A stretch of DNA of 64,000 nt from an uncultured Phycisphaeraceae bacterium (GTDB lineage Bacteria > Planctomycetota > Phycisphaerae > UBA1845): assembly GCA_964569425.1 (NCBI GenBank), contig CAZMVD010000006.1, positions 4,508 through 68,507 on the forward strand, written 5' to 3'. The translations under genes were made by a program, and so were the position numbers. This document shows, in pieces, positions 12,873 to 55,918 of this stretch (the stretch's first letter is position 1; every line of letters begins with the position of its first letter). The notes under the pieces were generated by a model. That model saw only the letters and a program-made list of their open reading frames with translations. It made no database searches and was not told the DNA's origin.

Positions 12873-15131
12873 ATGACCAAGGCAAGACAGAGGGGGCGGG
12901 AGAGGCAAGGGGTCGTCGGTTCAGGTGCTGCCAGGTTTCGCGTCACAACCTCCGGATTGGCCGCCGTGCTCCTGATGAGCGCACTCGTCGCCGCCGCGCC
13001 GCAGTTCATTGCAGTGGAGCGGCCGCCGGCCATCGAGTTTCCGGAAATGTTCGTCCCGGATGAATTCGTGGTGGAATTAAGCCTCAACGCACGGCGACAG
13101 GTGACCGTAGCGCAGAACGCGGATCGTCCGCGGGTCAGTATCGCCGGTTTGCAGCGTGCCCTCGACGACGCAGGCGTCGTGGGGTTCCGGCAGCAGTTCG
13201 TGGGCGCCAAACCGCAGCCGGTAGGTGGGAAGTATCCGGACTTGACCGGCTACTACACCGTCAAGATCGGCGCCGGGGTAGACCTGAAGGCGGCGATGGA
13301 TACCTTTGCGCGGAACCCGCATGTCGCCCGCGTCGAGCCGATCGGGATCCACCCCATTCACGCAGAGCCCAACGATCCGTACTACCGCGACTCGCCGAAT
13401 CCGAACTTCCCCTTCGACCAGTGGCATTATTTCGACCGTGGGTCGGAGGCCCACAGCATTCAGGCAGACCAGGCGTGGGACCTCAACGCGGGAAGCCCGA
13501 CGGTGTATGTGGGCATTCTCGATTCGGGCGTGCGGTATTATCACTGGGATCTGGGGGGATCGAATCCGCCGGGTCCTTCAGACAACGTGACCAACGGCAA
13601 CATCTTCATCAACCTGGGTGAAATCCCTGGAAACGGCATCGACGACGACGGCAACGGCTTCGTGGATGACGTGGTGGGCTACGACTTCGTGGCGTCTGCC
13701 TCCGGCGGCGCTGGTTGTCAGTGCAGTGATTCGGACTGCGGAACTGTCGATAACGATCCGCGCGACCACAACGGCCACGGCACGCACGTAGCGGGCACCG
13801 TCGGCGCGATCACCAACAACAACGTCCTGGTGGCGGGTGTGGCCGGCGGTTTGGCCGGGGGCACGTCCACCAGCACAGCGAACGGCATCAAGATCATTCC
13901 ACTGCGAATCGGCTGGAACGCCAAGTGCTTCGGAGCAGACGGGTACGGTTTCGTCAACATGGCTTATGCCGCATCGGCCATGAACTACGTGGCCAACCTG
14001 GTGGACCAGGGGTACAAAGTGGCGTCGATCAACTGTTCATGGGGCTCGTCCAATTCGGGCGGCATCGACGCGGCGGTCAATGCGCTGTTGGCGCGCAATG
14101 TGTCCGTGATTCACGCCGCGGGCAACAGCAACTCGAGCAGCTCGGACTACTTGGGCACCAAGGCCGGGGTCATCAGTGTGGCAGCAACCACCCGCACAGG
14201 CACCGGGGCCAGCTTCACCAATCATGGATCGTGGGTGGAGGTCGCTGCTCCGGGCGTGGAAATCCTGAGCACCTATCACCACTTCCCCGATCCGGCCAAC
14301 GATTACATCGCGCTTCTGGACGGAACGTCGATGGCGGCGCCGCACGTCGCGGGCATCGCTGCGCTGCTCGATTCTTGCGTTCCAAACCTCAGCGGGACGG
14401 ATAAGCGCAACCTGATCATGAACAACGTTCGTCCGTACAGCGACAGCCGTAACCTCGGCACGGGCATCGCCAACGCCAAGTTGGCGCTCCAGGCCGCCGG
14501 ATGTTCGTCCGCGCCGCAGTGTTCGACCAATGCCGACTGTAATGACGGGGACGCCTGCACGACGGACGTCTGCTCGAACGGACAGTGCTCCAATACGCCC
14601 ATCAATTGCAACGACGGCAACGCCTGCACGACCGATAGCTGTTCAGGCGGGGCGTGTTTCAATGATCCCATCACTTGCAATGACGGCAACGCCTGCACGA
14701 CGGATAGCTGCAACTCGTCGAGCGGATGCGTGTTCACGCCGATCAACTGTGATGACGGCAGTTTGTGCACGACCGATTCGTGCAGCAACGGGGTGTGCTC
14801 GAACACGCCGATCAACTGCAACGACGGCGATCCGTGCACGAGCGATAGCTGCAATCCCAGCACCGGTTGCGTGAACACTCCGCCTGCCTGCGGCCCGTCC
14901 GACGGCTGCTGCCCGTCGGGGTGTTCTTCCGGAAGCGATCCGGACTGCGCCGCCGGACCGGTGTGCGGAAATGACATCTGTGAAATCAGCGGCGGCGAAA
15001 ACTGCACCAATTGCCCGGCGGACTGCAATGGTGTTACGACTGGTCGCCCGACCAATCGGTACTGCTGCGGAACGGACGTCAATTGCAGCGATCCGCGCTG
15101 CACCGGAAACGGCAATACTTGCCAGCCGTAA
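12873..15131 (+). CDS. Secreted S8 (subtilisin-family) serine peptidase with C-terminal Cys-rich repeats
   Basis: Catalytic triad contexts VGILDSGV, HGTHVAGTVGA and GTSMAAPHVAGIAALL. C-terminus has 5 units of about 24 aa of C-N-D-G-x-x-C-T-x-D-x-C. Confidence 0.92.
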   Translation: MTKARQRGRERQGVVGSGAARFRVTTSGLAAVLLMSALVAAAPQFIAVERPPAIEFPEMFVPDEFVVELSLNARRQVTVAQNADRPRVSIAGLQRALDDAGVVGFRQQFVGAKPQPVGGKYPDLTGYYTVKIGAGVDLKAAMDTFARNPHVARVEPIGIHPIHAEPNDPYYRDSPNPNFPFDQWHYFDRGSEAHSIQADQAWDLNAGSPTVYVGILDSGVRYYHWDLGGSNPPGPSDNVTNGNIFINLGEIPGNGIDDDGNGFVDDVVGYDFVASASGGAGCQCSDSDCGTVDNDPRDHNGHGTHVAGTVGAITNNNVLVAGVAGGLAGGTSTSTANGIKIIPLRIGWNAKCFGADGYGFVNMAYAASAMNYVANLVDQGYKVASINCSWGSSNSGGIDAAVNALLARNVSVIHAAGNSNSSSSDYLGTKAGVISVAATTRTGTGASFTNHGSWVEVAAPGVEILSTYHHFPDPANDYIALLDGTSMAAPHVAGIAALLDSCVPNLSGTDKRNLIMNNVRPYSDSRNLGTGIANAKLALQAAGCSSAPQCSTNADCNDGDACTTDVCSNGQCSNTPINCNDGNACTTDSCSGGACFNDPITCNDGNACTTDSCNSSSGCVFTPINCDDGSLCTTDSCSNGVCSNTPINCNDGDPCTSDSCNPSTGCVNTPPACGPSDGCCPSGCSSGSDPDCAAGPVCGNDICEISGGENCTNCPADCNGVTTGRPTNRYCCGTDVNCSDPRCTGNGNTCQP

Positions 15132-16189: not shown

Positions 16190-19048
16190 ATGGAATGTCA
16201 CACTGTGTCACCTGAACCCCTGATCGAAGGAAACGACGACCCGCTGGTGGCGGAGTTGCGCGCCGCCTTCGGGTTTGGGACTCGCGGGCTGGGGCCGGAG
16301 GGCTCCCAGACGGATGGCGCGTCCAGCCGGTTATCGCCCTTCGGAACCGCCGCGCCGGAGCTATCCGCCCTGGCGCCGGCAAGCCGGCTCGGCGACTTTG
16401 AGATTCTTGGCGAGATCGGTCGCGGCGGCATGGGGGTCGTGTACCGGGCTCGGCAGGTGTCGCTGGATCGCCTCGTCGCGTTGAAGGTCCTGCCCGCGTC
16501 GCGGCAGCGACATGGCGCCTCCCTGGAACGTTTCCTGCGCGAAGCCCGCGCAGCGGCAAGGCTCAACCACGAAAACGTCGTACCCGTGTACTCCCACGGC
16601 GAGTGCGACGGATTCTATTACTACGCCATGAAGCTGGTCGAAGGCGTAACGCTCGACCTGGCGATCCGCTCCCACCCGGAACTGCTCAGTGCCACACATG
16701 CGTCATCGGCAGCGGCACGCCGCTTCAGCCGAACGAGGCCGGTGACAAAATCACTCACCGTTTCCGTGCCCGGGGCCGCCACCCCGCCCGCGCCCCACCC
16801 CGCCACCGCGGCGCCGGATGGGGAAGCCACCGTCACCTGCGACCACACCGCGCAAGACTACCGCCACATGGCGAACCTCCTCATCGGCGTCGCCGAAGGA
16901 TTGGCCCACGCCCATGCCAACGGCGTCGTGCATCGTGATATCAAGCCTCACAACCTGATCCTCGGGCACGAACAGCGTCTCTACATCACCGATTTCGGAC
17001 TTGCCTACCTGGTCAGCGAACCGCACGTCACCGTAAGCGGCGAAGTCATGGGCACCCCTGCCTATTTGTCGCCCGAACAGGTGCGCGGCCATATCCGCGA
17101 AATCGACCACCGCACCGACATCTACTCGCTCGGCGTCACGCTCTACGAAATGCTCACCAACACGCGACCCTTTCAGGGAGAAACGCGCGACCAGGTGCTG
17201 CACTCCATCAGCGCCAAGGACCCCGCACCGCCGCGGCGGCGAAACCCGCGCGTGCCCGTCGATCTCGAAACCATCTGCCTGCGCGCCATCGAAAAAGACC
17301 CCGCCCGCCGCTACCCCGGCGCGGCCGACTTCGCCGAAGACCTGCGGCGCTTCGTCGACGGACGCCCCATCCTAAGCCGCCGCGCCGGACCGATGGAACG
17401 CGCCGTCAAGTTTGCCCGGCGCAATCGTGCCGCTTCCACAGCCCTGGTGGCCGCAGTCATCATCGCCGCGGTGACCTCCGGATGGGGGCTCACGGCCTGG
17501 GCCGCCAAACGCGCGGAGGGGCAGCGCCTGGTACGAAAGGCGTACGAGCAACTGGTATACAACGACTATCGCCGGCCGGAGCGCATCGCCGCCGAGTTGC
17601 GGACCGCGGAAGAATTGAAAGCGCCGGCTACCGCGATGCACTTCGTCCGCGCGCTGGTCGCCATGGGTGAATCCAACGTAGAAAAAACGCACGCCGAACT
17701 GGCGCCCGTGCTCGCAGAAGATCCCGGTAATCGACAGGCGTTATACGTCCTGGCGTGGGCGCGGTGGCGGGCGGGCGATCCGGAAGGGTCGCGTGAGGCG
17801 TTCGCACAGGCCGAGGCGCTCGGCGGGGCGCAAGGCCCCGAAGAGTATTTCTTCCGCGGACTGGCCGCCCACTTTAATGATCCGCCGCTGGCCATGGAAT
17901 CCTATCGCCGCGCCAACCTGCTCCGCGCCCTCAACCACCAGTTCTTCCCGCAGGCCATGCTGCACCTGGCCCGTGCGCAAAATCAGCAAATGTACGCCCG
18001 ACGCACCGCCGATTCATTCGCCGAAACCGAATCCAGCCTGCGCACGCTCATCACCAACCAGTATTACGAGGCCTATCCCTATTATCTGCTCTCCATCGCC
18101 CATCGCCTCCGCGCCGAAGTGTACGAAAACAGCGCCGGAACGCGCGGCGCTTCGGATTCGCAGAACCATTTCGACGAAGCACTCCGCTGGGCCCGTGCCG
18201 GGCAGCAGGTCGATCCGGCAGACGATCGACCGGTCACCGCGGAAGCCGAATGCCTGGAACGGCTGGGCCGCTTCGACGAAGCACTGGCCGCGCGGAACCG
18301 CGCCATCGCCCTGGCCGACACCGCGCAAAAACGCTGCGAAGGTCTGCACTTCCGCTGGCGGCTGCATTACTGGCTGGGCGACTTCCCCGCCGCGCTGCAG
18401 GATATCGAGGCGCATTCCGCATGTATGCCCGATAATCTCTTCTACCGCCATGTGTATCCCGCGCTCGTCGCGGCGGAAATGGGTGACATGGCCACGGCAC
18501 AACAACACGCCGCGGCGCTCGCCGGTGCCCCCGACGCCGCGCACAGCCCCACCGCGTTGTTCACCATGCCGCGAACGATTCTCGCCGCCGGCGTGTGGCG
18601 GCTGCTGGGCCGGCCTGCGGAGGCGGCAGAATTGCTGGCGGCGTCCGATCCCGCCGGTTCCGAGAACAACGCGGAATCAACCGCCTGGTTGCGTGCGCTG
18701 TGGAGCTATTCTGCGGATCGAATGACCTTGGACGAGTTGGAGGCGATCGCCGCGGAATCTCCCCGGCCCTGGAAACTGATGGGAGAAGCCTGGTTTCACG
18801 CAGGCTTGAAATCGCTGGCGGCGGGCGATCGCGCGGCGGCGACCGCCGCCCTGCAACAGTCCTATCAGTCCTTCGATAGTGCCTTGGATTTCTCGTTTCA
18901 TTCTCGTATACTGTTGGTCAAACTGGCCGCGGATCCGCAATGGCCAATGTGGATTCCTCCCGTGCCACCCACGGAGCAGTTGCCTGTCCGGCTCCCGGTG
19001 CACAGCGGCAACGCGCCTGACCTGTCGTCCGCAGAAGGGGAAGAATAA
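16190..19048 (+). CDS. Ser/Thr protein kinase with TM segment and C-terminal TPR-like domain
   Basis: G-loop GRGGMGVVYRA, VALKVL, catalytic loop HRDIKPHNLIL, DFGLA, GTPAYLSPE. TM segment ALVAAVIIAAVTSGWGLTAWA, followed by helical repeats. Confidence 0.92.
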   Translation: MECHTVSPEPLIEGNDDPLVAELRAAFGFGTRGLGPEGSQTDGASSRLSPFGTAAPELSALAPASRLGDFEILGEIGRGGMGVVYRARQVSLDRLVALKVLPASRQRHGASLERFLREARAAARLNHENVVPVYSHGECDGFYYYAMKLVEGVTLDLAIRSHPELLSATHASSAAARRFSRTRPVTKSLTVSVPGAATPPAPHPATAAPDGEATVTCDHTAQDYRHMANLLIGVAEGLAHAHANGVVHRDIKPHNLILGHEQRLYITDFGLAYLVSEPHVTVSGEVMGTPAYLSPEQVRGHIREIDHRTDIYSLGVTLYEMLTNTRPFQGETRDQVLHSISAKDPAPPRRRNPRVPVDLETICLRAIEKDPARRYPGAADFAEDLRRFVDGRPILSRRAGPMERAVKFARRNRAASTALVAAVIIAAVTSGWGLTAWAAKRAEGQRLVRKAYEQLVYNDYRRPERIAAELRTAEELKAPATAMHFVRALVAMGESNVEKTHAELAPVLAEDPGNRQALYVLAWARWRAGDPEGSREAFAQAEALGGAQGPEEYFFRGLAAHFNDPPLAMESYRRANLLRALNHQFFPQAMLHLARAQNQQMYARRTADSFAETESSLRTLITNQYYEAYPYYLLSIAHRLRAEVYENSAGTRGASDSQNHFDEALRWARAGQQVDPADDRPVTAEAECLERLGRFDEALAARNRAIALADTAQKRCEGLHFRWRLHYWLGDFPAALQDIEAHSACMPDNLFYRHVYPALVAAEMGDMATAQQHAAALAGAPDAAHSPTALFTMPRTILAAGVWRLLGRPAEAAELLAASDPAGSENNAESTAWLRALWSYSADRMTLDELEAIAAESPRPWKLMGEAWFHAGLKSLAAGDRAAATAALQQSYQSFDSALDFSFHSRILLVKLAADPQWPMWIPPVPPTEQLPVRLPVHSGNAPDLSSAEGEE

Positions 19049-19049
19049 C

Positions 19050-20498
19050 ATGACCGTTCTCGTCGTTGCCTTTCGGGCTCGTTTTGCACTGGTCTTGGCC
19101 GGCGTCTTGTTGGGCGTGGCCGCCGTTACGACCTGGCTGCCGCGGGCCGCCGCCGCGCCCCCGGTAGCGCCGATCCCCACGCCCTTCTATTCCTTCGATG
19201 GCCAATCGCCCAAGGTTATGTCGGGTTCGTTCACCGCCGCGGATATCCTGCAACTCGGCCAGCCCGATCCAACGGTCGTGGTCGCGGGCACCGCCCTGGG
19301 CTTTACCTCACCCAACGACGAACTTGACGGCCTCTCCGCCGCCAACCAGGACCTCGGGTTGACCACCTCCTTTGTAATCATGTTCTCGGTCGATCGCGGC
19401 ACCCAGGGAAATGTCGCACCCGAGCCATCGAATGTCGCCGCCGCCGTCCCCTACAACGTGCAGGACCAGGCGGCCAAGGGCCAGGCAGCGGGCGACCTGT
19501 TCATGTCCGCGGCATTGTTCGATCGCGCCGGCATTATTCCCAACCAACTCGCCGCAGTGCTGCAGAACAACGTGCTGGCCATCAACAACTACGACGAAGG
19601 CGGCACCGACTACGCCGCCAATCCCGAAACCAGCGCCGCACAGTCCTCCACCGATCCCCAGGACAACGTCACATCCAGCACCCCCCTGCCCATCGCATTG
19701 GGGCGCGCGGCCGGCGGAGTGGTCCGGGTTTACTATTCCGCCACGGCGGCTTCGCCCTCGTTATTGAGCCTCAGTGCGCCCCAAATGCCCAGCGGCGCGA
19801 ACATCTTCTTCCACCCCGACCCCACCGATCCCGTGCTGATGCCCACGATCTTCGCCAGTTTCCAGCAACTGGGGCTGCTCCCGCAGGACGACATCAACGC
19901 CATGATCGTCATCGACGCCAACAACAATGGCCAGTTCGACGGCAATGACCAGGTCATCTACTCGCTCGCGGGCGAATCTCCCTCGCTGGAGATGATCCCC
20001 GGAACCAACCCCATTACCGGCCGAACCGATCTGTTCAGCTCCTCACCCGGAATGGGGGCGCGGCTGTATGCTTCCGGTGCGGACCTCGGCCTCGGCGCCA
20101 TGTCCGACAACATCGACGCACTGATGTTCCTGCCCTGTAACAATGCCGCCCAATGCGCGGCGCAGCACGGCATCCGCTCCCCGAAAGGCGACTTCAACGA
20201 CGACGGACAGGTGGACGCAACCGATTTTGAGGACCTCGAGCAGTGCTACACCGGCCCGGGCATTGCCTACGGTCCGGGCTGCGAAAAGGGCGACTTCGAC
20301 GGCGACGGAGATATCGATTGTGCCGACTGGCTTCAATTCCGCGATGCCTGGACCGCCGGTCCGCCGCTGCCGGATCTGGCGCAGTGCCCCAACAACGTGC
20401 CCGCCGCCTCCCAATGGGGCCTGCTGACCCTCGCGCTGCTGATGCTGGCAGCAGGATCAGCCATGCTCCGCCGGCGCCTTTCGCGCCCGGCCGCTTGA
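19050..20498 (+). CDS. Secreted protein with dockerin/EF-hand-like Asp repeats and IPTL-CTERM-like tail
   Basis: I moved the start to the ATG at 19050 (MTVLVVAFRARFALVLAGVLLGVAAV), 1 nt after the kinase stop. Contains GDFNDDGQVDATDFEDL and GDFDGDGDIDCADWLQF. C-terminus is VPAASQWGLLTLALLMLAAGSAMLRRR. Confidence 0.8.
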   Translation: MTVLVVAFRARFALVLAGVLLGVAAVTTWLPRAAAAPPVAPIPTPFYSFDGQSPKVMSGSFTAADILQLGQPDPTVVVAGTALGFTSPNDELDGLSAANQDLGLTTSFVIMFSVDRGTQGNVAPEPSNVAAAVPYNVQDQAAKGQAAGDLFMSAALFDRAGIIPNQLAAVLQNNVLAINNYDEGGTDYAANPETSAAQSSTDPQDNVTSSTPLPIALGRAAGGVVRVYYSATAASPSLLSLSAPQMPSGANIFFHPDPTDPVLMPTIFASFQQLGLLPQDDINAMIVIDANNNGQFDGNDQVIYSLAGESPSLEMIPGTNPITGRTDLFSSSPGMGARLYASGADLGLGAMSDNIDALMFLPCNNAAQCAAQHGIRSPKGDFNDDGQVDATDFEDLEQCYTGPGIAYGPGCEKGDFDGDGDIDCADWLQFRDAWTAGPPLPDLAQCPNNVPAASQWGLLTLALLMLAAGSAMLRRRLSRPAA

Positions 20499-23637: not shown

Positions 23638-23972
23638 GAGTCTCCCATTTTGATGGCGGCTTCGAGGCCGCGTTGTGGGTTCATGGCGCTCGCCAGCGTA
23701 TCGACAGGCGGCCATTCTGACAACGCGTTCGCGGCCTCGCACTTCTTCTTCCCTGACTGTCAAGTTCTCCCGCGGGCGGTCTATGAATGGATAGAGTCGC
23801 AAACCCTGAGCGCGGCCGCGGTCCTGCCTGAAGACACGATCCGCCGCGGCTCAGCCTCGTGCCCGCTACTTTCCCTTTCGTAGCGACTCCCAGGCGGCAT
23901 CGGGGGTATGACCCTCGCCCCGGGGAATGTTGCGCGCACGTCGGATTCGGTTGGATCAACGGAGGCCAGATC

Positions 23973-26900
23973 ATGAACCCTCACCATCACTTTTGCTCAA
24001 GGCACCATCATCGTCACGCTGCCCGCGGTTTGCTACTCTTTTCCTTTGCCGCCGCGCTGGGCGCAAGCCTTGCACTTGCCCGGCCGGGCGATGTGCGCGC
24101 CGGCACCGAAGTGGCGCCGTGGCTTCCGCCCGACACGCCGCGCTGGGCGACCGCCCCCCTACCGCGCGATGGGGCCAGTTTCAGCCTCGCGGATGCGCCA
24201 ACCATCAATCTCGACGACCCCCAGGCCGTCTTCGATCACGTCATCGCCTCGTTGCCCGACTCGGTGGACGTCATCCCCACCGAAAACTACACCTATTGGC
24301 GCTTCCACACGGCCGACAAGTACGTTTGGGGCAACCTGCGCCTCGAACCCGACACCCGCGATCAGGGCATCATCCACATCGGCTATTACGAATTCCGCGA
24401 AGAACTCACCGGCCCCGAAGAAGCCAATCCGCGCTATCGGCAGCTTGACGTGGGCGACGCACTCCGGCGCGTCGACGACTTCACCTACGACCTCACTTAC
24501 GGAGGCCGCACGGTCCGTTTTCTGCTCAACCGCGTCGACCAGCATGAACCGCTGGCCTTCAGGCTCGGCGAAGGCGAACGCTTCGTCATGCGCACCGAGG
24601 ACGAATCGCGCATTCGCTTTCACCTGATCTTCCACGAAGCCACCCGGAACTTCTTCTTCGTGGCCGATGAAGACCGCGCCCCTCTCGACGGCGCCCTCAT
24701 GGTCAGCGACGATCTCGCCCTCGACACCGGCACCGGCTTCCTGTTCTTCGTCGATAAGGCGCGCAACAACCGCAAGATCCTCGTCGGCGTCTATCGCCGC
24801 AACATCGCCCAGAACAACTATTACGACGGACCCGCCGACCAGCTTGCCGACAACTACATCCCGAACGTACCCCAATACAAGTCGTATCTGGAGCAGGCCT
24901 ACCCATTCACCCGCGGCGTGATCGACCAGTTCGGCTTCTACGTTCACGACCCCGGCAGCCGCGTGGCCGTCGCCCCCTACCACTCCTACCAGACCATTAC
25001 CGAAATGCAGGGCATGGTCGACGTGTGCAAAAACTACGGCGGCGTCCCAGAGATGATGGCCTGCATCATGCCCGGCGGCATGCGCCAGGAAACGCCCGAC
25101 GACCCCTCCGCAAACGACCCGTGGGGCGACACCTCCGCGCTGCTCAACCCCCAGGTCGTGTTCTCCGAGGACTGGGAGGGCGACCCCCTCGGCGCCGGCG
25201 GCTGGACGGCGTCAGGCCTTTGGCACCTCACCACCGACAGCCCCGCCACCTGCTCCCCGCCCGACGACTTCGTGTCGCCGGTAACCGCCGCCTACTACGG
25301 CATCGAAGGAGCCTGCAACTACGACAATGGCGGCCCCAACTGGGGAACCCTGACCTCACCCGTCATTCCCAACCTCCCCGATGGTTCGTTCCTGTACGTG
25401 CACTCGCGCCGCGTGTCCGAGGGACGCTGCGGCCAGCGCGACCTGAGCTTCATCGAAGTCTCCGTCAGCGGTGAGATCGATCCGCTCACCGGCTACAAAT
25501 TCCCCATCGGCAAGCGCTGGCAGTTCCTCTTTGAGAACTGCGACAACTCCAACGCCTGGCAGGAACTCGGCCCGCTGAGTCTGGAGCGCTTCGCGGGGCG
25601 CGACATCCAGATCCGCTTCCTCTTCGACGCCATCGACTTTCAGAACAATGGTTTCCTCGGCTGGATGGTCGACGACGTCGCCATTCTCACCGGCGAAAAC
25701 GCCGCCGGACCAGACTATTCCGCGCCCCGCCACATGGGCGGCGTCTCCTGGCACTTGCCTGGTGCCACCTTCCTGCCACCAGGACATCGCCACCTCACCG
25801 GTATGACCTGGCACCAGATCACTTCGACTTGGAACCACCTGGCCGGCCTCTCCTGGCCCGAAAACCCCAATCCCGGCGGTGGCAATCTACACATGTCGGG
25901 AACGACCTTCGTGCCGCGGCCTCGTCCGCGCCCCCGCCCCGGTGGTGGAGGTGGTGGCGCGCCCCCGCCGCGCAAGCCGCCGCACATGGCCGGTACCACC
26001 TGGCACCTTGCCGGCGTTACCGCGCCGCCCCCCGGAGCCAAGCACGCGGCGGGAATCACCTGGCACCTGGAGAACATCACCTTCATCCCGCCCTGGGCCA
26101 AGCATAACTCCGGTTTCACCTGGCACGTCTGGGGCGTGTCCTTCATACCGAAAGACGCCAAGCACGCCGCCGGCATCACCTGGCATCTGGAAGGCATCAC
26201 CTTCATCCCCGGCGGCACCAAGCACATCGCCGGTACCACATGGCACCTGCCCGGAATCACTTTCGTACCTCCCGGCTCCAAGCACGCCGCGGGCATCACC
26301 TGGCACCTGCCCGGAATCACTTTCATCCCGCCGGGAACCAAGCACAATTCCGGCACCACGTGGCACGTGGCCGGCGTCACCTTCATCCCGAAGGACTCCA
26401 AGCACGCCGCAGGAACCACCTGGCACATCGCCGGCGCGACCTTCATCCCCAAGGGCTCCAAGCATAACAGCGGCTCCACGTGGCACGTCGGCGGTGTGAG
26501 CTTCATTCCACCCGGAACCAAGCACAACTCCGGCTCCACCTGGCACTTCGGCGGCCAGACCTTCATCCCACCCGGCACCAAGCACAACAGCGGTTCCACG
26601 TGGCACGTCGGCGGCGTGAGCTTCATACCGCCCGGAACCAAGCACAACTCCGGTTCCACGTGGCATGTCGGCGGCCAGACCTTTATCCCGCCCGGAACCA
26701 AACACAACTCCGGTGTCACCTGGCACGTGGCGGGCGCCAGCTTCATTCCGCCCGACGCGAAGCACAATTCCGGCTTCACCTGGCACTACAACGGACAGAC
26801 CTTCATTCCCGCCGGCACGATCCACAACTCCGGGATCACCTGGCACTACAACGGCCAGTCCTTCATCCCGCCGGGAACGATCCACAATTCCGGCTTCACC

Positions 26901-28826
26901 TGGCACTACAACGGCCAGTCGTTCATCCCACCGGGAACGATCCACAACTCGGGCATTACCTGGCACTTCAATGGGGAGTCGTTCATTCCGGCGGGTACCA
27001 GGCACAACTCCGGCATCACCTGGCACGTGAACGGCGTGTCGTTCATTCCGCCGGGTGCCAAGCACGTGGCAGGCACCACGTGGCATATGGCCGGGGCCAC
27101 GTTCATGTTCCCGGTCATCGGACCGGAAGTCCCGACCGTCGATCCCGAGCAAGAAGGCTCCGGCGATGCGCGCGGCACAGAAGATCCGGCGACCCTGGTC
27201 TACCCGAGCTGCACCGTCCCCGCCGATTGCCCGCCGCTCGAGTGCCACAGCGCGGCATGCAATCCGGAGGACAATCTCTGCGAGTACACCGCCACGCCCG
27301 GCGACCCCTGCGACGACGGCGACCCGGCGTCGACCGGCGATACCTGCAATCAGTTCGGTGATTGCATCGGTGTACTCGTGCCCGGCAATCCGTGCGATGA
27401 CTTCAACCCTTGCACGGGCGGGGACACGATCAACAACATGGGTCAGTGCGTGGGTGCGCCGACCCCGTTCGTACCTTGCGATCCGGGGAACCCCTGCATC
27501 ATCCCCGGCTCCGCCTCCTGCGATCCCATGGGGAATTGTGTCGGTATGTTTGCCGGCGGCATGCCCTGCGACGACGGCGACGAAACCACCCTGGGAGACA
27601 TGTGCGATCCATTCCTGGGGACGTGCGCCGGCAGCTTCGATCTTGACTGCGACGACCTTATGGAATGCAACGGACAGGAGGAGTGCGATCCGCTGATCGG
27701 AGTCATCGCGGGCACACCGCCCGACTGTCTGTTCCCCTGCCAGGGGCTGCACGGCGTGTGCGTCGATAACGACCCGGCCAACTCCGGTTGCGTCGGTCAG
27801 GGCGCCGACGAAAACTTCGACCTGCCCAACGACTGCGCAGAGTCCGAGTGCGACGACTTCCCCGAGCCCGACGTTCCGGTCGATTGCGACGACGACAACC
27901 CCTGCACCGTCGACGATTGCGATCCGTCCACCGGCGATTGCGTCAACACGCCCGTGCCCGACGGAACCACCTGCGACAGCGGCGACGACTGCGCCATCGG
28001 CACCTGCCAGAGCGGCATCTGCGAACGCAGCGTGATCGTCGACTGTACCGGCCTGGACTGCAACCAGAACGGGTTGGAAGACGGCCAGGAAACCGCCGGC
28101 GGCCTGGCCCCCGACTGCAACAACAACCGTCAGCCCGACGAGTGCGACGTCGCGCCCGAAGGTCCGTCGCAAGACCTCAACAACAACGGCGTCCCCGACG
28201 AGTGCGAAGGGCTGGTGAACCCGGCCGCAGTCGCTCCGGCCCCGCACGATCGTCAGAAGAACCGTTACATCTCTTTCGCGCCCAACAACCTCGGCTCCGT
28301 CGCCTTCAAGGTCCGACGCGTTTCGCCCGGACCTGCGGTCGACGTCGGGTGGGTGAGTGCCCCCGATGCCAACGGTTTGGCCAAGATCGAACCGGGACCG
28401 GTTACCCGGGTCTGGAACGAGGCGACCATTCACGGCGGCGATTGCGAGATCGTCCCCGTGGCCGAGTTCGAAGTGCTGGCCACCGCCGACGGCGTCACGT
28501 TCGCGCCGGGGCTGATCGTGCCGACCATCGACCTGCCCAGCGGCGGCAAGTTCTGGGGCGACACGGTGGGCAGCTTCGACGGCATACAGTGGACGGCGCC
28601 GAACAACATCGTGAACGCCAACGACTTCCTGGCGGCCTTGCAGAAGTTCCAGAACCTGCCCACAGCGCCGCACATCACCGTGGTGGATGTGCAGTCGGTC
28701 AGTTCCATCGATCCGTGCCTCAACCGGATCGCCAACATCGCCGACGTGTTCCTGCTGCTCCAGGCGTTCCAAGGCAACGCCTACCCCTTCACCACCAACC
28801 CGGCGACCTGTCCGCCCTGTCCGTAG
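23973..28826 (+). CDS. Giant (1617 aa) secreted multidomain protein: unknown N-domain, MAM/galactose-binding-like domain, 20-aa His/Trp repeat array, Cys-rich repeats, shared CPxCP C-terminal domain
   Basis: ATG at 23973 preceded by ggagg. His-rich signal-like N-terminus MNPHHHFCSRHHHRHAARGLLLFSFAAALGASLALA. Contains GGWTASGLWHLT...IQIRFLFDAIDFQNNGFLGWMVDDVAI, then the repeats described in the next feature, then the Cys-rich and C-terminal domains. Confidence 0.85.
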   Translation: MNPHHHFCSRHHHRHAARGLLLFSFAAALGASLALARPGDVRAGTEVAPWLPPDTPRWATAPLPRDGASFSLADAPTINLDDPQAVFDHVIASLPDSVDVIPTENYTYWRFHTADKYVWGNLRLEPDTRDQGIIHIGYYEFREELTGPEEANPRYRQLDVGDALRRVDDFTYDLTYGGRTVRFLLNRVDQHEPLAFRLGEGERFVMRTEDESRIRFHLIFHEATRNFFFVADEDRAPLDGALMVSDDLALDTGTGFLFFVDKARNNRKILVGVYRRNIAQNNYYDGPADQLADNYIPNVPQYKSYLEQAYPFTRGVIDQFGFYVHDPGSRVAVAPYHSYQTITEMQGMVDVCKNYGGVPEMMACIMPGGMRQETPDDPSANDPWGDTSALLNPQVVFSEDWEGDPLGAGGWTASGLWHLTTDSPATCSPPDDFVSPVTAAYYGIEGACNYDNGGPNWGTLTSPVIPNLPDGSFLYVHSRRVSEGRCGQRDLSFIEVSVSGEIDPLTGYKFPIGKRWQFLFENCDNSNAWQELGPLSLERFAGRDIQIRFLFDAIDFQNNGFLGWMVDDVAILTGENAAGPDYSAPRHMGGVSWHLPGATFLPPGHRHLTGMTWHQITSTWNHLAGLSWPENPNPGGGNLHMSGTTFVPRPRPRPRPGGGGGGAPPPRKPPHMAGTTWHLAGVTAPPPGAKHAAGITWHLENITFIPPWAKHNSGFTWHVWGVSFIPKDAKHAAGITWHLEGITFIPGGTKHIAGTTWHLPGITFVPPGSKHAAGITWHLPGITFIPPGTKHNSGTTWHVAGVTFIPKDSKHAAGTTWHIAGATFIPKGSKHNSGSTWHVGGVSFIPPGTKHNSGSTWHFGGQTFIPPGTKHNSGSTWHVGGVSFIPPGTKHNSGSTWHVGGQTFIPPGTKHNSGVTWHVAGASFIPPDAKHNSGFTWHYNGQTFIPAGTIHNSGITWHYNGQSFIPPGTIHNSGFTWHYNGQSFIPPGTIHNSGITWHFNGESFIPAGTRHNSGITWHVNGVSFIPPGAKHVAGTTWHMAGATFMFPVIGPEVPTVDPEQEGSGDARGTEDPATLVYPSCTVPADCPPLECHSAACNPEDNLCEYTATPGDPCDDGDPASTGDTCNQFGDCIGVLVPGNPCDDFNPCTGGDTINNMGQCVGAPTPFVPCDPGNPCIIPGSASCDPMGNCVGMFAGGMPCDDGDETTLGDMCDPFLGTCAGSFDLDCDDLMECNGQEECDPLIGVIAGTPPDCLFPCQGLHGVCVDNDPANSGCVGQGADENFDLPNDCAESECDDFPEPDVPVDCDDDNPCTVDDCDPSTGDCVNTPVPDGTTCDSGDDCAIGTCQSGICERSVIVDCTGLDCNQNGLEDGQETAGGLAPDCNNNRQPDECDVAPEGPSQDLNNNGVPDECEGLVNPAAVAPAPHDRQKNRYISFAPNNLGSVAFKVRRVSPGPAVDVGWVSAPDANGLAKIEPGPVTRVWNEATIHGGDCEIVPVAEFEVLATADGVTFAPGLIVPTIDLPSGGKFWGDTVGSFDGIQWTAPNNIVNANDFLAALQKFQNLPTAPHITVVDVQSVSSIDPCLNRIANIADVFLLLQAFQGNAYPFTTNPATCPPCP
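25731..27122 (+). repeat. In-frame 60-bp tandem repeat array (19 clean units from 25983, plus 3 degenerate units upstream)
   Basis: Units read HNSGSTWHVGGVSFIPPGTK, HAAGITWHLPGITFIPPGTK and similar. 25983 + 19 x 60 = 27123, so the phase is perfect. Confidence 0.95.
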
Positions 28827-28861
28827 GGTAACGAGCCGGCAGGACCGCTTTCTCGACTCGA

Positions 28862-28885
28862 GGGCCGCTCGGCAACGAGCGGCCC
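28862..28885 (+). terminator. Rho-independent terminator after the giant gene
   Basis: gggccgctcg-gcaa-cgagcggccc followed by ttttc. Confidence 0.75.
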
Positions 28886-29047
28886 TTTTCATTACGTGCC
28901 GTCCCTCGAAGTGGAGGGCGCCGAACCGGTCACGATGGGCAAGGTCAGTTCCCACGGATCAGCATTGGATCGGCCGCCTGTGATTCCGGGTAGCCGCCCT
29001 GGTGCGGTTCAACAAATGGTGGTTCCTGAAACAATGCCCGCCACAAG

Positions 29048-30739
29048 ATGATCGAGTGGAAAGACAACTGCGCGATCCCGGCTGCTGATGCGATGAACAG
29101 CGCGCGCCCCGCCCCATGCTGGCCGTTCGCGGTCCTCGCCGCGGCCGCGCTGCTGCTCATCTACTTCCGCCTGCACGCCTTCGACCTCCCCCTCGAAACC
29201 GACGAGTGCAACTACATCTACATTGCCGGTCGCCTGCTGGCCGGCGACCGACTCTACGTGGACGTGTGGGATCACCAGCCCTTCGGGGTGTTCGTGCTGT
29301 TCGCGGGCGTCAGCGCCCTGTTCGGCGATGCCCCGTCCGTGTTCCGCTCGTTGGCGCTCGCGTTCTCGCTGGTCTCGCTGGGACTTATCTTCCAGATCGT
29401 GCGGCGTTGCGCAGGCCCCCTCGCCGCCGCGGCGGCGACACTGATGTTCGCGCTCTGCTCCTCCGATCCCGGAACGGCCGGAGAGGGGTGCAACCGCGAA
29501 ATCTACATGAACACGCTGGTGCTCGCGGCGTGGTACGGCGCGCTGGGCGCCGGCCCGCGCCGTCGTTGGCCGTGGCTGGCGGCAGGGGCGGCACTGGCCG
29601 CGGGTTCAACGATCAAAACCATCCTCGCGGTGCACTGGCTGGCCCTGGCGGCGTGGGCGGTCTATTCCGACAAGGCGTCGCGCTCGACCGTGCAGGAACC
29701 GCGCTCGGCGGCAGCGCGGGCGCCGTCGCGCTGGGGCCGGTTGGCGTATCTGGCGGCCGGGCCGGCACTGGTGTGGGCCGGGGCCTTCGCCTGGTTCGCG
29801 GTGACAAATCGATGGCACGAATTCTACGACGCGGTGTTCGGCTTCAACCTCAGCTACAGCGGGCGGAATGAGTCGTTCTGGGTTCGCTTCATCGACTTTT
29901 TTCGGCCGGGCAGCCGCCAACAGCCGTTTGTGTTCCACAGCGCCTGGCCGCTGTGGCTGGCGGCCGTCCCCGCGCTCGCCTGGCTGGCGCTCGAGGTCCT
30001 CCGCCGCCGGCGCCGCGACGCCGCGGCCATCGTGCTTCTCGCCGCCGCCAATTACGCAGCCGTGTGCCTGCCCGCGCAGTTCTGGCCGCACTATTACCAC
30101 CTGATGATTCCTTCGCTGGTCGTCGCCGTGGCGGTCGCCGCGGAGCGACTCTGGAGTGCCAATTACATGGCACTCTCGAACGGGCGGGCGCGCCGCGCCG
30201 CGGGCGCCACCCTCCTGGTCGCACTGGCCGCCTGGCTGGCGGTGACACAATATCGGCACTATCTCAGCCAGCCGCCTTTCGGCATCACCGTGCAGCGTTA
30301 CAACTCGCGCGATTTCTGGGGCCGCGCCCACGGGGAGAACATCGCCCGGGTCACCGATCCGGAGGATAATATCTTCGTCTACGGCAACGAAGCGTCGTTC
30401 TATTACTACGCGCGGCGCCCCTGCGCCTCCCGCTTCACCATGATTACCGCCCTGCGCAGCGGCTATGCAGGCCACGAAGCGCGCCGCCGCATCTTGCTGG
30501 AGGAGATTCGCACGCGCCGCCCCCGCCTCATTCTCGTGGTGCTTGGCGAGGAGGCGTTTCCCGCATGGGCCGATTTTCTGCCCACCCGCTACGACGCGGT
30601 GGGCTGGGATTTTCGCGACCGCCCCCCACACGACCCCATCCTCATGATCCTCTGCGACCGCGATCGCCCCATCGCCAACCTCGACTGGAACTGGGACCGA
30701 TCGAGCGTGGGAGGCTGGAACCTGGGGGAACAGCGCTGA
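29048..30739 (+). CDS. GT-C fold membrane glycosyltransferase (GT39/PMT/ArnT-like)
   Basis: Polytopic membrane protein. The first loop carries the DE-x-x-Y motif (LETDECNYIYIAGRL) typical of ArnT/PMT-type enzymes. Alternative start MNSARPAP at 29093. Confidence 0.7.
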   Translation: MIEWKDNCAIPAADAMNSARPAPCWPFAVLAAAALLLIYFRLHAFDLPLETDECNYIYIAGRLLAGDRLYVDVWDHQPFGVFVLFAGVSALFGDAPSVFRSLALAFSLVSLGLIFQIVRRCAGPLAAAAATLMFALCSSDPGTAGEGCNREIYMNTLVLAAWYGALGAGPRRRWPWLAAGAALAAGSTIKTILAVHWLALAAWAVYSDKASRSTVQEPRSAAARAPSRWGRLAYLAAGPALVWAGAFAWFAVTNRWHEFYDAVFGFNLSYSGRNESFWVRFIDFFRPGSRQQPFVFHSAWPLWLAAVPALAWLALEVLRRRRRDAAAIVLLAAANYAAVCLPAQFWPHYYHLMIPSLVVAVAVAAERLWSANYMALSNGRARRAAGATLLVALAAWLAVTQYRHYLSQPPFGITVQRYNSRDFWGRAHGENIARVTDPEDNIFVYGNEASFYYYARRPCASRFTMITALRSGYAGHEARRRILLEEIRTRRPRLILVVLGEEAFPAWADFLPTRYDAVGWDFRDRPPHDPILMILCDRDRPIANLDWNWDRSSVGGWNLGEQR

Positions 30740-31937: not shown

Positions 31938-34517
31938 CTAACTCAACGCCTCGCGGCGGGTGAAGGCGAGCTTCCCGGCCACAAGCAGCATCAGCCCCAG
32001 CACCACCAGTCCCCACTCCGAAACCGTGGGGATGGCGCCGACGCACCCGGGTGCAAAGACCGCGTCATCCACGCCGGGACACAGATCGTTGCAGTCGTCG
32101 ATCCCGTCGCCGTCGCTGTCGCCGGTTTCAGCTACGCCGCAACCGCAGTTGCCCGGCGCGATCTTGTTGGGATCGTTGGGGCAGCCGTCGTTGCAGTCGG
32201 CGGTGCCGTCGCCGTCGGAGTCGTCGTCGGGCGCGCCGCAGCCGCACTGGCCCGGGTTGATCTTGTTCGGATCATTCGGACAGCCGTCCTCGCAGTCGGC
32301 GGTGCCGTCACCGTCGATGTCGTCGTCCGGCGTGCCGCAACCGCAAATGCCCGGGTCGATCTTGCCCGGGTCGTTGGGGCAGCCGTCGTTGCAATCGGCA
32401 GTGCCGTCGCCGTCGGTGTCGGTATCGGGCGTGCCGCAGCCGCACTGCCCGGGAGCGAGCTTGTTCGGATCCTGCGGACATTCATCGCCGCAGGTCTCGT
32501 CCGTGCCGTCGCCGTCGGCATCCCCCTCGCAGGTGGTGCCGTCGCCGACATAGGTTCCTCCGCCGGCGGTGCAATCGGTCGGCGTCACATCCGCGGTGCA
32601 GGCGCCGTTCGTGCAGCAGGCGCCGATGCAATGAAACTCGGCATAGAAGCCGGGGCTTCCGATGTCGCCGTTGGCCGAGGCATAGGAATTCTGCGAATCA
32701 CCTACGCTCGCCAGCCGCCACAGGAAGATGTTGTCGGCGCCCACCGCATCGCGGCACGGCCAGCCGGCAAACCCGTTGGTGCGGATGGTGCCGGGGAAGA
32801 CCTGGTCCCCGTAGGTGAGCCGATCCTTGAGTACGCCGTTGCCATCGTAAAGGTTGATCTGATCTGCGCGGCCGAGGTTCACCGTGTTGGAGCCGATGAC
32901 CACGATGCCCGCAAGGCTCCAGTCGGCGATGAAGGTGGCGTCGGGGTCCTCTGCCAGGATGACGGATTGACCGGGCAGGACGACGCCGAACGCGGAAAGG
33001 TCCACGGCGCCCGGGAGGTTACTGTCGTCGTCGTAGCTCCAGCCGGTCATGTCCACCGGATTCGCGTCGAGATTGGTAAACTCGACGTATTCGCCCCCGG
33101 TGCCGGTGTACATGTATTCGGTGATTCGCACGTCGCCGTCGGCGGGCGCTGGACAGTTGGTGCTGCCGCAGTCCGTTCCGTCCCCCTGGTAGCTTCCCCC
33201 CGCCTGCGTGCATTGGGTGTATGTGACATCACTGCACAGCCCCACCGAGCAGCACGCGCCGGTGGGGATGGCGTTGCAAGATACGGCCACGTAAACGCCA
33301 GGGCTGCCAACGTCACCTTGCGACGAAGCCACCGAGCCCTGGCTGTCGCCCACGTGCGAGAATTGCCATTGGAAGATGTCGTTGGCGCCGGCCGCCTCGT
33401 CGCACGGCCAGCCGCTGATGTTCTGCGTGCGAATCGTGCCCGGAAAGTTCTGATCGCCGTAGGTGAGGCGGTCCTTGAGCGTGCCCGAGGCGTTGTAGAG
33501 GTTGATCTCGTCGTTGCGTCCCAGCCCCGCTCCGTTATTGCCAACCACCGGCACACCGACCAGTCCCCAGTCCGCGATGAAGCTCGCCGCGGGCCCTTCG
33601 ACCAGCAGGCCCGACTGGCCGGGCAGCAGCGTGCCGAGTCCGCTGAGGCTGACCGTTCCGGGAATCTGGCTGTCGTCGTCGAAGCTCCAGCCGGTCATGT
33701 TGACGGGCACGTTGTCGAAGTTGGTGAACTCGATGAATTCCGCGCCGGAGCCGGAATACATGTACTCGGTGATGCGGACGTCGCCATCCGTGGGTGCCGG
33801 GCACGAAGTCGTTAGACAGTCGGTACCGTCGCCCTCGTAGACGCCGCCGCCGTTCTCGCAATCAACCTGGGTCACCGGGTCGGAGCATACGCCCGTGGTG
33901 CAGCACGCGCCGGTCGGCGTCGCGCCGCAATTGAACAGGACGAACGCTCCGGGGCTGCCTACCGCACCCCCGGCCGACAGGAAGGAATTCTGCACATCGG
34001 CGACGGCGGAAAGCACCCACTCATACGCATCGTTCGCGCCCAGCCCCGCGGCGCACACCCACCCGCTGGGATTCTGCGTGCGTATGGACCCGGGGAAGTC
34101 CTGATCGCCGAACTGAAGCTGATCGACCAGCACGTTGGAGGCATCCCAGATATTGATGGTGTCGTTTCGTCCCAGCGCGGCCACGCCGCCGGAGCCGCCG
34201 ATGATCTTGACGCTCAGCGCCAGCCCCCACGCCGTACGAAAGGCGGCTTCCGTCGCATCGGTGATGATCACCGATTCGCCAGGCGCGACGCTGCCGAAGG
34301 CGCTCAGATCGAACGAGCCCGGCGTGTTGGAGTTGTCGTCATAACTCCAGCCGGTCATGTCGACGGCCGCGCCGCCCACGTTGGTCAGCTCGACGAACTC
34401 GCCGTCCGGCCCGGTGTACATGTACTCGGTGATGCGAATCTGCGCGACGGCACTCGACGCGCACAAGCCAAGCAGCCCCACGGCCGCCGCCAAACTCGCC
34501 CTCTTCCCTACCATCAT
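31938..34517 (-). CDS. Surface protein: 3 lamin-tail-domain modules, 4 thrombospondin-type-3-like Asp/Cys repeats, IPTL-CTERM tail
   Basis: Start MMVGKRASLAAAVGLLGLCASSAVAQ at 34517 with aggaggg upstream. LTD signatures (I/V)RITEYMY(T/S)G...E(F/Y)(V/I)E(L/F)TN...DMTGWS(Y/F)DDD occur three times. DxDGDGTADCxDGCPNDPxKIxPGxCGCG occurs four times. The protein ends AIPTVSEWGLVVLGLMLLVAGKLAFTRR. Confidence 0.88.
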   Translation of the reverse strand: MMVGKRASLAAAVGLLGLCASSAVAQIRITEYMYTGPDGEFVELTNVGGAAVDMTGWSYDDNSNTPGSFDLSAFGSVAPGESVIITDATEAAFRTAWGLALSVKIIGGSGGVAALGRNDTINIWDASNVLVDQLQFGDQDFPGSIRTQNPSGWVCAAGLGANDAYEWVLSAVADVQNSFLSAGGAVGSPGAFVLFNCGATPTGACCTTGVCSDPVTQVDCENGGGVYEGDGTDCLTTSCPAPTDGDVRITEYMYSGSGAEFIEFTNFDNVPVNMTGWSFDDDSQIPGTVSLSGLGTLLPGQSGLLVEGPAASFIADWGLVGVPVVGNNGAGLGRNDEINLYNASGTLKDRLTYGDQNFPGTIRTQNISGWPCDEAAGANDIFQWQFSHVGDSQGSVASSQGDVGSPGVYVAVSCNAIPTGACCSVGLCSDVTYTQCTQAGGSYQGDGTDCGSTNCPAPADGDVRITEYMYTGTGGEYVEFTNLDANPVDMTGWSYDDDSNLPGAVDLSAFGVVLPGQSVILAEDPDATFIADWSLAGIVVIGSNTVNLGRADQINLYDGNGVLKDRLTYGDQVFPGTIRTNGFAGWPCRDAVGADNIFLWRLASVGDSQNSYASANGDIGSPGFYAEFHCIGACCTNGACTADVTPTDCTAGGGTYVGDGTTCEGDADGDGTDETCGDECPQDPNKLAPGQCGCGTPDTDTDGDGTADCNDGCPNDPGKIDPGICGCGTPDDDIDGDGTADCEDGCPNDPNKINPGQCGCGAPDDDSDGDGTADCNDGCPNDPNKIAPGNCGCGVAETGDSDGDGIDDCNDLCPGVDDAVFAPGCVGAIPTVSEWGLVVLGLMLLVAGKLAFTRREALS

Positions 34518-34693
34518 GGTGCAGTCCCTCCTCGTTGTTTGCTGGGTTGTTTCACGGCTTCGAAGAACGCGCCCGGCCACGGGCCGCGGCCTCAACAAGC
34601 GCTTCCACACAAGAGGCGAGACGGTAACGTGTCGACGTTGGGCCTACGTCAGCGCGAAGTTAAGAAACTGTGAATTCGTGGGCGCCGCGAGAC

Positions 34694-55449: not shown

Positions 55450-55788
55450 TTATTCGGGCTGCGATTCGTCGGGATAGACGGCGCTCACCAGCACCTCAAA
55501 ACAATCGCGGCAAAGATCCTCTACGCAGCCGGAGTCCGGCTCCGCGCACGCGGCACAGGCGACCGCAATATCGCCGAGCAATTCCCCGACGGTGGCGCCA
55601 CCGTCGCGCGCCGCCACGATGGCCGGGCGCAGTTCCGCGACCTCACGATCGCTGAAGCCCGCGTCGCGGCACACCCCCGGCGCCGCGGGAACCGGCACAC
55701 ACGCGGAAGCCAACGCGGCCGCCAACGCCGCGCCTGAGAGCCTGAATCGCCGCGCGGGCCCTTTTGTCCAGTTTTTCGCACATCTCAT
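55450..55788 (-). CDS. Small Cys-rich hypothetical lipoprotein
   Basis: Signal/lipobox-like GAALAAALASAC. High GC at third codon positions in this frame. Confidence 0.45.
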   Translation of the reverse strand: MRCAKNWTKGPARRFRLSGAALAAALASACVPVPAAPGVCRDAGFSDREVAELRPAIVAARDGGATVGELLGDIAVACAACAEPDSGCVEDLCRDCFEVLVSAVYPDESQPE

Positions 55789-55918
55789 CTGCCGCAGCCT
55801 ACCTTCAACCTCTTGCCGGGGCGAGCGCCCGGACCTGTCGAGTGGTGGTCCTGATGGACCGGCTCTGCCGATACTTCCAAGGGTGCTCTACGCCAGGACA
55901 CGGCGCGACACGATCGTC

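Follow-up and report, generated by a model that had tools for sequence, protein, structure and literature searches.

The window analyzed here is a 64,000-nucleotide stretch of DNA from an uncultured Phycisphaeraceae bacterium (assembly GCA_964569425.1, contig CAZMVD010000006.1). On its forward strand, positions 23973 to 28826 encode a 1617-amino-acid (aa) multidomain protein that, judging by its translation, appears to be secreted; its domain order is common to the homologs P0075, P0078, and P0079. The open reading frame (ORF) spans 23859 to 28826 (+), where a GTG start would give 1655 aa, and the ATG at 23973 gives 1617 aa. The protein contains a tandem array of 19 units of 20 aa (25983 to 27122, +) with the consensus H-x-x-G-x-T-W-H-x-x-G-x-[TS]-F-I-P-P-G-x-K, and this array lies C-terminal to a conserved domain of about 330 aa (24108 to 25154, +). 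An initial annotation of this DNA had described the array as an unassigned His/Trp repeat within an exoprotein. Here we describe the array, its relatives, and its N-terminal partner, and we tentatively propose that the array is a beta-solenoid that would act as a binding rod.

Register and selection of the His/Trp array

When positions 25983 to 27122 were cut into 60-bp pieces, 19 units were obtained in perfect phase, and their peptides were exactly those quoted in the initial annotation. Tandem Repeats Finder recovered the array both at a period of 60 bp (16.5 copies, score 505) and at a period of 120 bp (6.7 copies, score 564). The invariant positions reported earlier for the unit were also found: H1, G4, T6, W7, and H8 are present in all 19 units, G11, F14, and P16 in 18, I15 in 16, and K20 in 14. 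The protein has 20 occurrences of the motif H....TWH, whereas residue shuffles (n = 2000) reached at most one. No second array was found on either strand of the 64,000-nucleotide window. Ahead of the array proper, at 25731 to 25913 (+), there are one complete unit, HMGGVSWHLPGATFLPPGHR, and three broken ones (HLTGMTWHQITSTWN, HLAGLSWPENPNPGGGNL, and HMSGTTFV). These are followed by a linker composed of a Pro/Arg stretch and then a Gly stretch (PRPRPRPRP-GGGGGG; PRPRPRPRPGGGGGGAPPPRKPP; 25914 to 25982, +). The first unit of the array (HMAGTTWHLAGVTAPPPGAK) and the last (HVAGTTWHMAGATFMFPVIG) are distinct and cap-like.

It had also been claimed that selection acts on the peptide and that the array did not arise by recent DNA duplication. 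Our comparison of the units agrees with this. Units 9 and 11 (26463 to 26522 and 26583 to 26642) encode an identical peptide and differ at 5 nucleotides, all of them synonymous. Pooled over every pair of window units, the proportion of synonymous differences (pS) was 0.525, against 0.265 for nonsynonymous differences (pN), and adjacent units are 74% identical in DNA. Because pS is much larger than pN and adjacent units share just this fraction of their nucleotides, the array is old as DNA and has been kept as peptide. The array peptide is under purifying selection, which speaks for a functional module over filler. That the array is an artefact of a GC-rich ORF was ruled out, since the frame and the flanking domains are kept in more than 10 homologs. 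Two antisense ORFs (25715 to 26779, minus strand, 354 aa; 25887 to 28955, minus strand, 1022 aa) run across the array and the downstream Cys-rich region. ORFs of this kind are to be expected from high G+C content and repeats, and these two lack support as genes.

A rare family spread over three bacterial classes

The array obtained no Pfam or NCBIfam match at an E value of ≤1 and no sequence match in the PDB, and the repeat remains unassigned, as the initial annotation had it. A consensus six-unit array compared with Pfam returned nothing relevant at E ≤10. Full-text literature searches found no paper with peptide strings of the unit or of the N-terminal domain, keyword searches gave nothing specific, and an exact-protein lookup found no record of the window protein.

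We scored a three-unit profile (alignment A1) against all 1.84 billion sequences that represent a set of about 15 billion proteins. This gave 28 matches at E ≤1e-3, 6 of them at E ≤1e-30, and about 10 were genuine once the sequences had been read. The weak matches P0049, P0051, and P0053 to P0056 turned out on reading to be unrelated eukaryote-like repeats, and P0057 to P0069 were set aside, with their sequences unread, for their weak E values (1.8e-6 to 9.9e-4) and short matched stretches. A word-indexed search with the array returned 2 proteins only; this type of search under-reports the family, so that the exhaustive profile search and searches with the N-terminal domain were needed. Scanning one genome from each of 185,579 species for the repeat pattern located 8 loci: five in Phycisphaerae, one in Planctomycetales, one in Kordiimonas (Alphaproteobacteria), and one in Halieaceae (Gammaproteobacteria). 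The His/Trp array family is real, very rare, and distributed over three bacterial classes, and it was found in marine, particle-associated lineages. The initial annotation had held that a prediction of pure disorder, combined with a lack of homologous arrays in relatives, would argue against a structured functional solenoid; relatives do carry such arrays.

Family conservation was calculated from 262 units in 15 arrays. Zero indels were found among these units, and the 20-residue register is strict. H1, H8, and [TS]13 are present in 100% of units, T6 and W7 in 99%, I, V, or L at position 15 in 98%, F14 in 97%, and P16 in 95%; position 9 is hydrophobic in 93%. The window array has this signature, with H1, T6, W7, and H8 in 19/19 units and F14 and P16 in 18/19. 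G4 is lost in P0047 (HATYITWH) and P0048 (HMQDVTWH) and is therefore no family invariant. Position 20 is K in 58% of units and R in 15%, and in about a quarter it is I, S, E, T, A, or V. In P0079, one unit that lacks T6 and W7 (HVVPWSPHSPTWSF...) still keeps H1 and H8. The same protein (P0079/L011) contains, at aa ~640 to 680 and ahead of the linker, four to five 8-residue mini-repeats, HxxGxTWG, that equal the first 8 residues of the unit.

There are two unit types, HAAG.TWH[ILV]PG.T and HN[ST]G.TWH[VY].G[QE][ST], which alternate strictly in some relatives to form a 40-residue super-repeat. Such a super-repeat had been proposed for the window array itself. It is weak there, with a mean unit identity of 0.71 at lag 2 versus 0.69 at lag 1, and the proposal applies better to the relatives L014 (0.83 versus 0.50) and L013 (0.80 versus 0.61), in which it is strict.

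Unit number is conserved at 16 to 21 and is usually 20. Arrays of 20 units were counted in L008, L009, L014, P0075, P0078, P0047, P0005, and P0007, and L015 also has 20 units after reading through a frameshift inside the array. The other counts were 21 (P0006), 18 (P0079), 16 (P0048), and, in the window, 19 plus the complete pre-linker unit. In L015 the array goes on in the +1 frame with 11 more units and the Cys-rich region. The gene calls of L015 at ~6800 to 6860 (P0003) and of the P0001 C terminus end in out-of-frame repeat translation (…YPSRYETQFGSNLARIRR…, AGHQAQLGFDVARERGELHP x4); this frame break probably reflects an indel in the assembly and not biology.

The closest relative of a unit lies in its own array for 17 of the 20 units of P0047, 15 of the 20 of L014, and all 15 of those compared in P0048. 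Between arrays, no diagonal signal of positional orthology was seen, and arrays of different lineages therefore cannot be aligned unit by unit. The own-array closest relatives, together with the constant counts, imply that the sequence has been partly homogenized within lineages and that the length has been held. A distinct terminal unit, H[MV][AS]G[TL]TWHxxGATF[LM], recurs across Phycisphaerae proteins. By analogy, the distinct first and last units, the last one recurring, may behave as solenoid caps do.

Coupling to a conserved N-terminal domain

The N-terminal domain (residues 84 to 432) is marked by the motifs PTENYxYWRF, WGNLR, DES, NNYYDGPADQLADNY, and RVAVAPY. A single-sequence search found 45 homologs and a profile search at least 213, and every named one is labeled "hypothetical protein". 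Pfam analysis of all 39 aligned members revealed no family for the domain and matched unrelated add-on domains only. AlphaFold2 (AF2) modeled the domain with a predicted local distance difference test score (pLDDT) of 91 and a predicted template modeling score (pTM) of 0.89. Foldseek found no fold match for this model in the PDB (best E value, 0.024; template modeling [TM] score, ≤0.17) or in BFVD, and a search of PDB sequences with the domain profile was empty at E ≤10.

Most members stand alone as proteins of about 350 aa. A hydrophobic N-terminal segment is present in 114 of 121 domain proteins and a lipobox-like motif in 20 of the 121, and a Cys pair is common; for these reasons the domain is taken to be extracytoplasmic. 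About two dozen polar residues are at least 90% conserved, including DES and NxYxDGPxDQLxDN, which suggests a catalytic site or an ion- or ligand-binding site. The carriers (P0003 to P0039 and P0070 to P0174) include Thermoanaerobaculia, Andersenbacteria, Verrucomicrobiales, Xanthobacteraceae, and Gammaproteobacteria. P0070 to P0072 seem to hold two tandem copies of the domain.

Every array with an intact N terminus stands behind this domain. The window domain (PTENYxY...NNYYDGPxDQLxDN) is 46 to 63% identical to those of P0003, P0005 to P0007, P0047, P0075, and P0079, all of which are array carriers. The array is obligatorily coupled to the N-terminal domain. Long extensions were found in 18 of 146 domain proteins, and 16 of these 18 have Trp/His-rich or His/aromatic repeats; P0004, also among the 18, breaks off just past the start of its first unit. 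The repeat types carried by the domain comprise the 20-mer, a degenerate 20/21-mer (P0009 and P0010), a 12-mer, and an HFP type (PPHFPRITFS, in P0041). The 12-mer, S-x-[ST]-W-P-x-x-H-x-x-x-x, is strict and is present as 16 to 19 units in P0012 (aa ~400 to 629) and P0085 (aa ~350 to 547); a Trp/His 12-mer repeat in P0013 (aa 1 to 90) is N-terminal to the domain. Since several repeat types occur on one domain, the coupling is between the domain and a Trp/His repeat chemistry, not one repeat sequence alone. P0011, likewise one of the 18, has an N-terminal hexapeptide extension with a PF00132 match, an unrelated addition to the shared domain. We also noted that P0052 (979 aa), whose N terminus is unrelated, has about 55 copies of a 7-residue repeat, G-R-S-W-H-x-K, at aa ~560 to 960, a further tandem array built on [ST]-W-H.

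Two arrangements of these proteins were seen. The planctomycete order is signal peptide, N-terminal domain, beta-sandwich domain, array, and Cys-rich region, followed by a dockerin-like, FN3, or unrecognized end. The proteins of Kordiimonas and Halieaceae, like P0007, have a lipobox and then the domain, followed by the array, which ends at the stop codon. In the proteobacterial lipoproteins the array is thus a free C-terminal end, distal to the lipid anchor, and this speaks against its being no more than a stalk that joins anchor and head.

Other domains of the protein and its gene neighborhood

The claim that the product is an exoprotein is backed by two features of the translation, a signal-peptide-like N terminus and a Cys-rich region, which suggest secretion. 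The putative signal peptide (MNPHHHFCSRHHHRHAARG-LLLFSFAAALGASLALA; 23973 to 24080, +) is recognized from the translation alone and has a His-rich n-region; the number of His residues in this n-region (23973 to 24030) is unusually high. A beta-sandwich accessory domain (GWTASGLWH...FLGWMVDDV) follows the N-terminal domain at 25155 to 25694 (+). It is of a kind common to secreted metallopeptidase-type proteins and weakly resembles an InhA-like MAM domain, with homolog matches in P0040 and P0042 to P0044. PF20773 matches this domain at an E value of 0.03 in one family member, and the window copy is without a Pfam match.

On the 3' side of the array, an acidic linker (27123 to 27200, +) leads to the Cys-rich region of the CxDxxxCTxDxC type (27201 to 28202, +). 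Within this region, at about 27882 to 27956, Dicty_CTDC (PF00526) scored 28.6 and 31 bits against a cutoff of 27, which places the region in that family; it was the sole Pfam or NCBIfam match at E ≤1 in the whole window protein. The protein ends in a domain of about 205 aa whose family was not recognized (NRYISFAP...; 28203 to 28826, +, including the stop codon), in the place where relatives have a dockerin-like or FN3 region.

A gene for a PMT_2 glycosyltransferase (GT-C, dolichyl-phosphate-mannose type) lies 220 bp downstream of the array gene, at 29048 to 30739 (+). O-glycosylation of the Thr/Ser residues of the array by this enzyme was considered and dropped, because the gene was not found beside the homologs in other genomes. 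The neighborhood in the window is dense in large secreted proteins (12873 to 15131, 18879 to 20498, 31938 to 34610, and 55592 to 61009). Among them, an S8 peptidase has four Dicty_CTDC repeats, another protein carries a dockerin, a third combines three lamin-tail domains with an IPTL-CTERM sorting signal, and a fourth, of 1805 aa, contains BACON and dockerin along with six FGE-sulfatase matches.

Predicted structure of the array

The 380-aa array was modeled with AF2 from an alignment of six homologous arrays (7 rows). The model is regular and all-beta, with three short strands per unit, at positions 6 to 9, 12 to 14, and 20 to 1. These positions agree with the spacing of Gly4, Gly11, and Gly18 (7+7+6) and with a corner at Pro16-17. 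The initial annotation had suggested a beta-hairpin solenoid. The solenoid is what the model predicts (pLDDT, 61; pTM, 0.51), but no hairpin was seen, each unit instead having three short strands. When the model was compared with the PDB by using Foldseek, the best matches were three-stranded beta-helices, namely, Ag43 (4kh3; E value, 1e-4; probability, 0.96), 7kob (probability, 0.97), and 7koh, and then the HK620 tailspike. As a test of a right-handed parallel beta-helix fold, these Ag43-type matches have TM scores of 0.2 to 0.29 and come from a low-confidence model. We regard a solenoid, with modest confidence, as the best-supported predicted fold for the array, short of established. Alternation along the strands would place W7 and the hydrophobic position 9 on one face and T6 and H8 on the other.

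Interpretation of the array and alternative explanations

The reading that we prefer, to which we give somewhat less than an even chance, is that the array represents a new beta-solenoid repeat family acting as a multivalent binding rod for an extended ligand, to which it would target the N-terminal domain. Each 20-residue unit would form one rung of a three-sided beta-solenoid from the predicted strands, with corners at Gly 4, 11, and 18 and at Pro 16-17. Parallel beta-solenoids usually rise ~4.8 Å per rung, and about 20 rungs would give a rod of ~10 nm with distinct end units. Because H1, T6, W7, H8, [TS]13, and F14 recur in each rung, continuous His, Thr/Ser, and aromatic ladders would run along the rod, and these may present a multivalent surface to an extended periodic ligand. 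The putative ligand that we favor is a polysaccharide or another polymeric surface, and the His ladder might confer sensitivity to pH or metal. Such a rod would target or hold the conserved N-terminal domain outside the cell.

Several points weigh against a binding rod. The array model is of low confidence (mean pLDDT of 61, pTM of 0.51, and no residue at ≥90, from a 7-row alignment), and its TM scores to real beta-helices are just 0.2 to 0.29. Which face is exposed, with side chains directed outward, would follow from the strand alternation alone. The partner domain has no recognizable function in the PDB, BFVD, and Pfam comparisons. The gene neighborhood is not conserved, as judged from six homolog loci and from tblastn comparison of 12 window neighbors with all fetched loci, and it offers no clue to function. 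The short degenerate arrays of P0009 and P0010, with 3 to 4 units, show that ~20 units are not universal. Finally, the absolute invariance of two His residues per rung fits metal ligands better than it fits a typical carbohydrate-binding surface.

This last point leads to a solenoid templated by metal, which we consider unlikely, although it is the main alternative. H1 and H8 of one or two adjacent rungs would hold Cu, Zn, Ni, or Co, forming a column of about 10 to 20 sites along the rod, and the metal would drive extracellular folding, as Ca2+ does for RTX beta-rolls; the array might then serve in metal capture, storage, or buffering or in metal-dependent adhesion. The 100% conservation of both His residues in 262 units, which extends to the P0079 rung without T6 and W7, speaks for this arrangement, and the other repeat types on the domain also keep His and an aromatic residue (the 12-mer SWPxxH and the HFP type), as does the 7-mer RSWH repeat of P0052 behind an unrelated N terminus. 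The small residues after H1 (AAG or NSG) and the HxxGxTWG mini-repeats of P0079 recall, by analogy, the Cu(II)-binding prion octarepeat. The modest AF2 confidence could reflect an absent cofactor, and the 40-aa two-rung super-repeat of the relatives would suit one site per rung pair. However, no metal-binding family or motif in Pfam or NCBIfam was matched. That the invariant set contains no Cys, Met, Asp, or Glu as coligands and that no metal transport or resistance genes lie consistently near the array loci argues neither way. In an elaborated form, which strikes us as quite unlikely, the ~10-nm column of 10 to 20 metal sites would be lined by ~20 stacked Trp residues ~4.8 Å apart, and it would act either as an extracellular metal store or scavenger with metal-switched folding or as a Trp/metal hopping chain for long-range electron transfer; a domain whose fold has no counterpart among solved structures would be delivered with it.

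The remaining alternatives rank lower. Unit number held at about 20, the position of planctomycete arrays between head domains and a Cys-rich, dockerin-like tail, and the expectation that core positions would likewise be invariant in each rung would all suit a passive rigid spacer, which would hold the N-terminal domain at a fixed ~10 nm from the Cys-rich or anchoring end and whose invariant residues would have structural roles alone, in core packing and as internal His/Thr ladders. We think this improbable, since in the Kordiimonas and Halieaceae lipoproteins and in P0007 the anchor is at the opposite end, beside the domain, and nothing is spaced by the terminal array; the Trp/His repeat of P0013 is N-terminal to the domain, and the unrelated repeats rich in the same residues on the same domain point to chemistry and not length alone. 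A slim chance goes to an unfolded, cohesive His/aromatic extracellular material, cross-linked by metal or forming a pH-dependent coacervate, for matrix, holdfast, or aggregation, for which the His-rich structural proteins of marine invertebrates are an analog. Its composition (rich in His, Trp, Pro, Gly, Ser, and Thr), the low AF2 confidence, the adjoining Gly- and Pro-rich linkers, and the marine, particle-associated lineages of the carriers are compatible with such a material, but the exact 20-residue register, zero indels, cap-like ends, and fixed unit number are marks of a defined fold, and strand and turn positions are sharply distinct. Units of exactly equal length with K (58%) or R (15%) at position 20 could also be read as a polyprotein precursor, cut after position 20 into 20-residue His/Trp peptides, with the N-terminal domain as carrier or processing enzyme. 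This appears very improbable: position 20 is neither K nor R in about a quarter of units, three consecutive window units end in I, no protease, maturase, or exporter is conserved nearby, the Cys-rich and dockerin-like downstream domains would serve no purpose, and the AF2 model predicts beta structure between units.

If the predicted fold is correct, the array is a new and unusually exact sequence solution to the beta-solenoid, with ~20 rungs kept across three bacterial classes. Its regularity makes it an attractive natural scaffold for ordered His/Trp arrays in metal coordination, catalysis, or materials. The analysis also brings to light a secreted domain family that lacks annotation, has at least 213 members, and is widely distributed among bacteria. 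Its only recurrent fusion partners are Trp/His repeats, and the fusion gives a concrete starting point for working out what each part does. The large set of uncharacterized surface proteins in marine Phycisphaerae gains a defined module.

Comparison with known repeat proteins

The closest structural likeness is to Ag43-type passengers, which are three-stranded parallel beta-helices with rungs of about 19 to 20 residues that form extracellular rods for adhesion and self-association. The Ag43 passengers (4KH3, 7KOB, and 7KOH) gave the best Foldseek matches of the array model (E values of 1e-4 to 4e-3; probabilities of 0.87 to 0.97), but the array is only 10 to 13% identical to them in sequence, with TM scores of 0.2 to 0.29, and is without a Pfam match. 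Ag43 rungs are degenerate, whereas the array has six positions that are 95 to 100% invariant and two His residues per rung. No autotransporter, AIDA, or pertactin profile was matched in the 1617-aa protein, and there is no C-terminal beta-barrel translocator.

The mode of action proposed for the array resembles that of the choline-binding or cell-wall-binding repeats (CW_binding_1). These are tandem aromatic units of ~20 residues that build a solenoid-like superhelix, in which aromatic residues of successive repeats form the ligand sites, and they are appended to catalytic domains for targeting. CW_binding_1 units have a GW...WYY pattern and form a hairpin, whereas the array has H...TWH...F.P, three predicted strands, and carriers in Gram-negative marine lineages. 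CW_binding_1 (PF01473) was not matched at E ≤1 by the array or the whole protein or at E ≤10 by the consensus six-unit array.

For the metal-templated alternative, the analog is the RTX nonapeptide GGxGxDxUx, in which ion binding at each turn accounts for the near-invariant residues and folding takes place only once the protein has been secreted. Its period is 9 (18 per turn), and Ca2+ is bound by Asp and Gly carbonyls, whereas the candidate ligands in the array are His; no Pfam or NCBIfam match to HemolysinCabind (PF00353) was obtained, and the invariant set of the array has no Asp. A second analogy, without homology, is to the prion octarepeat PHGGGWGQ, a Cu(II)-binding tandem repeat that is disordered without Cu. 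Both have a His anchor, small or Gly residues, and a Trp in each unit, as does the 8-residue HxxGxTWG of P0079. They differ in that Trp follows His at +6 in the array and at +4 in PrP, and the array is predicted to be beta-structured.

Among the other regular solenoids, ice-nucleation and antifreeze coils (TxT/TxN ladder; 12- to 16-residue or Ca-bound 19-residue coils) gave no Pfam or NCBIfam match, and unlike them the array carries T-W-H and [TS]-F-I at a period of 20. The hexapeptide left-handed beta-helix (PF00132; [LIV]-G-x4 hexads, 18 residues per coil) had no match in the window protein. Pentapeptide repeats (A[D/N]LXX) share the 20 residues per coil and the regular solenoid, but the array lacks a 5-residue subperiod, has three predicted sides rather than four, and obtained no Pfam match to PF00805. 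Taken with the predicted fold, these comparisons suggest that the array is a new repeat family within the beta-solenoid class, tied to a domain whose model has no fold match among solved structures.

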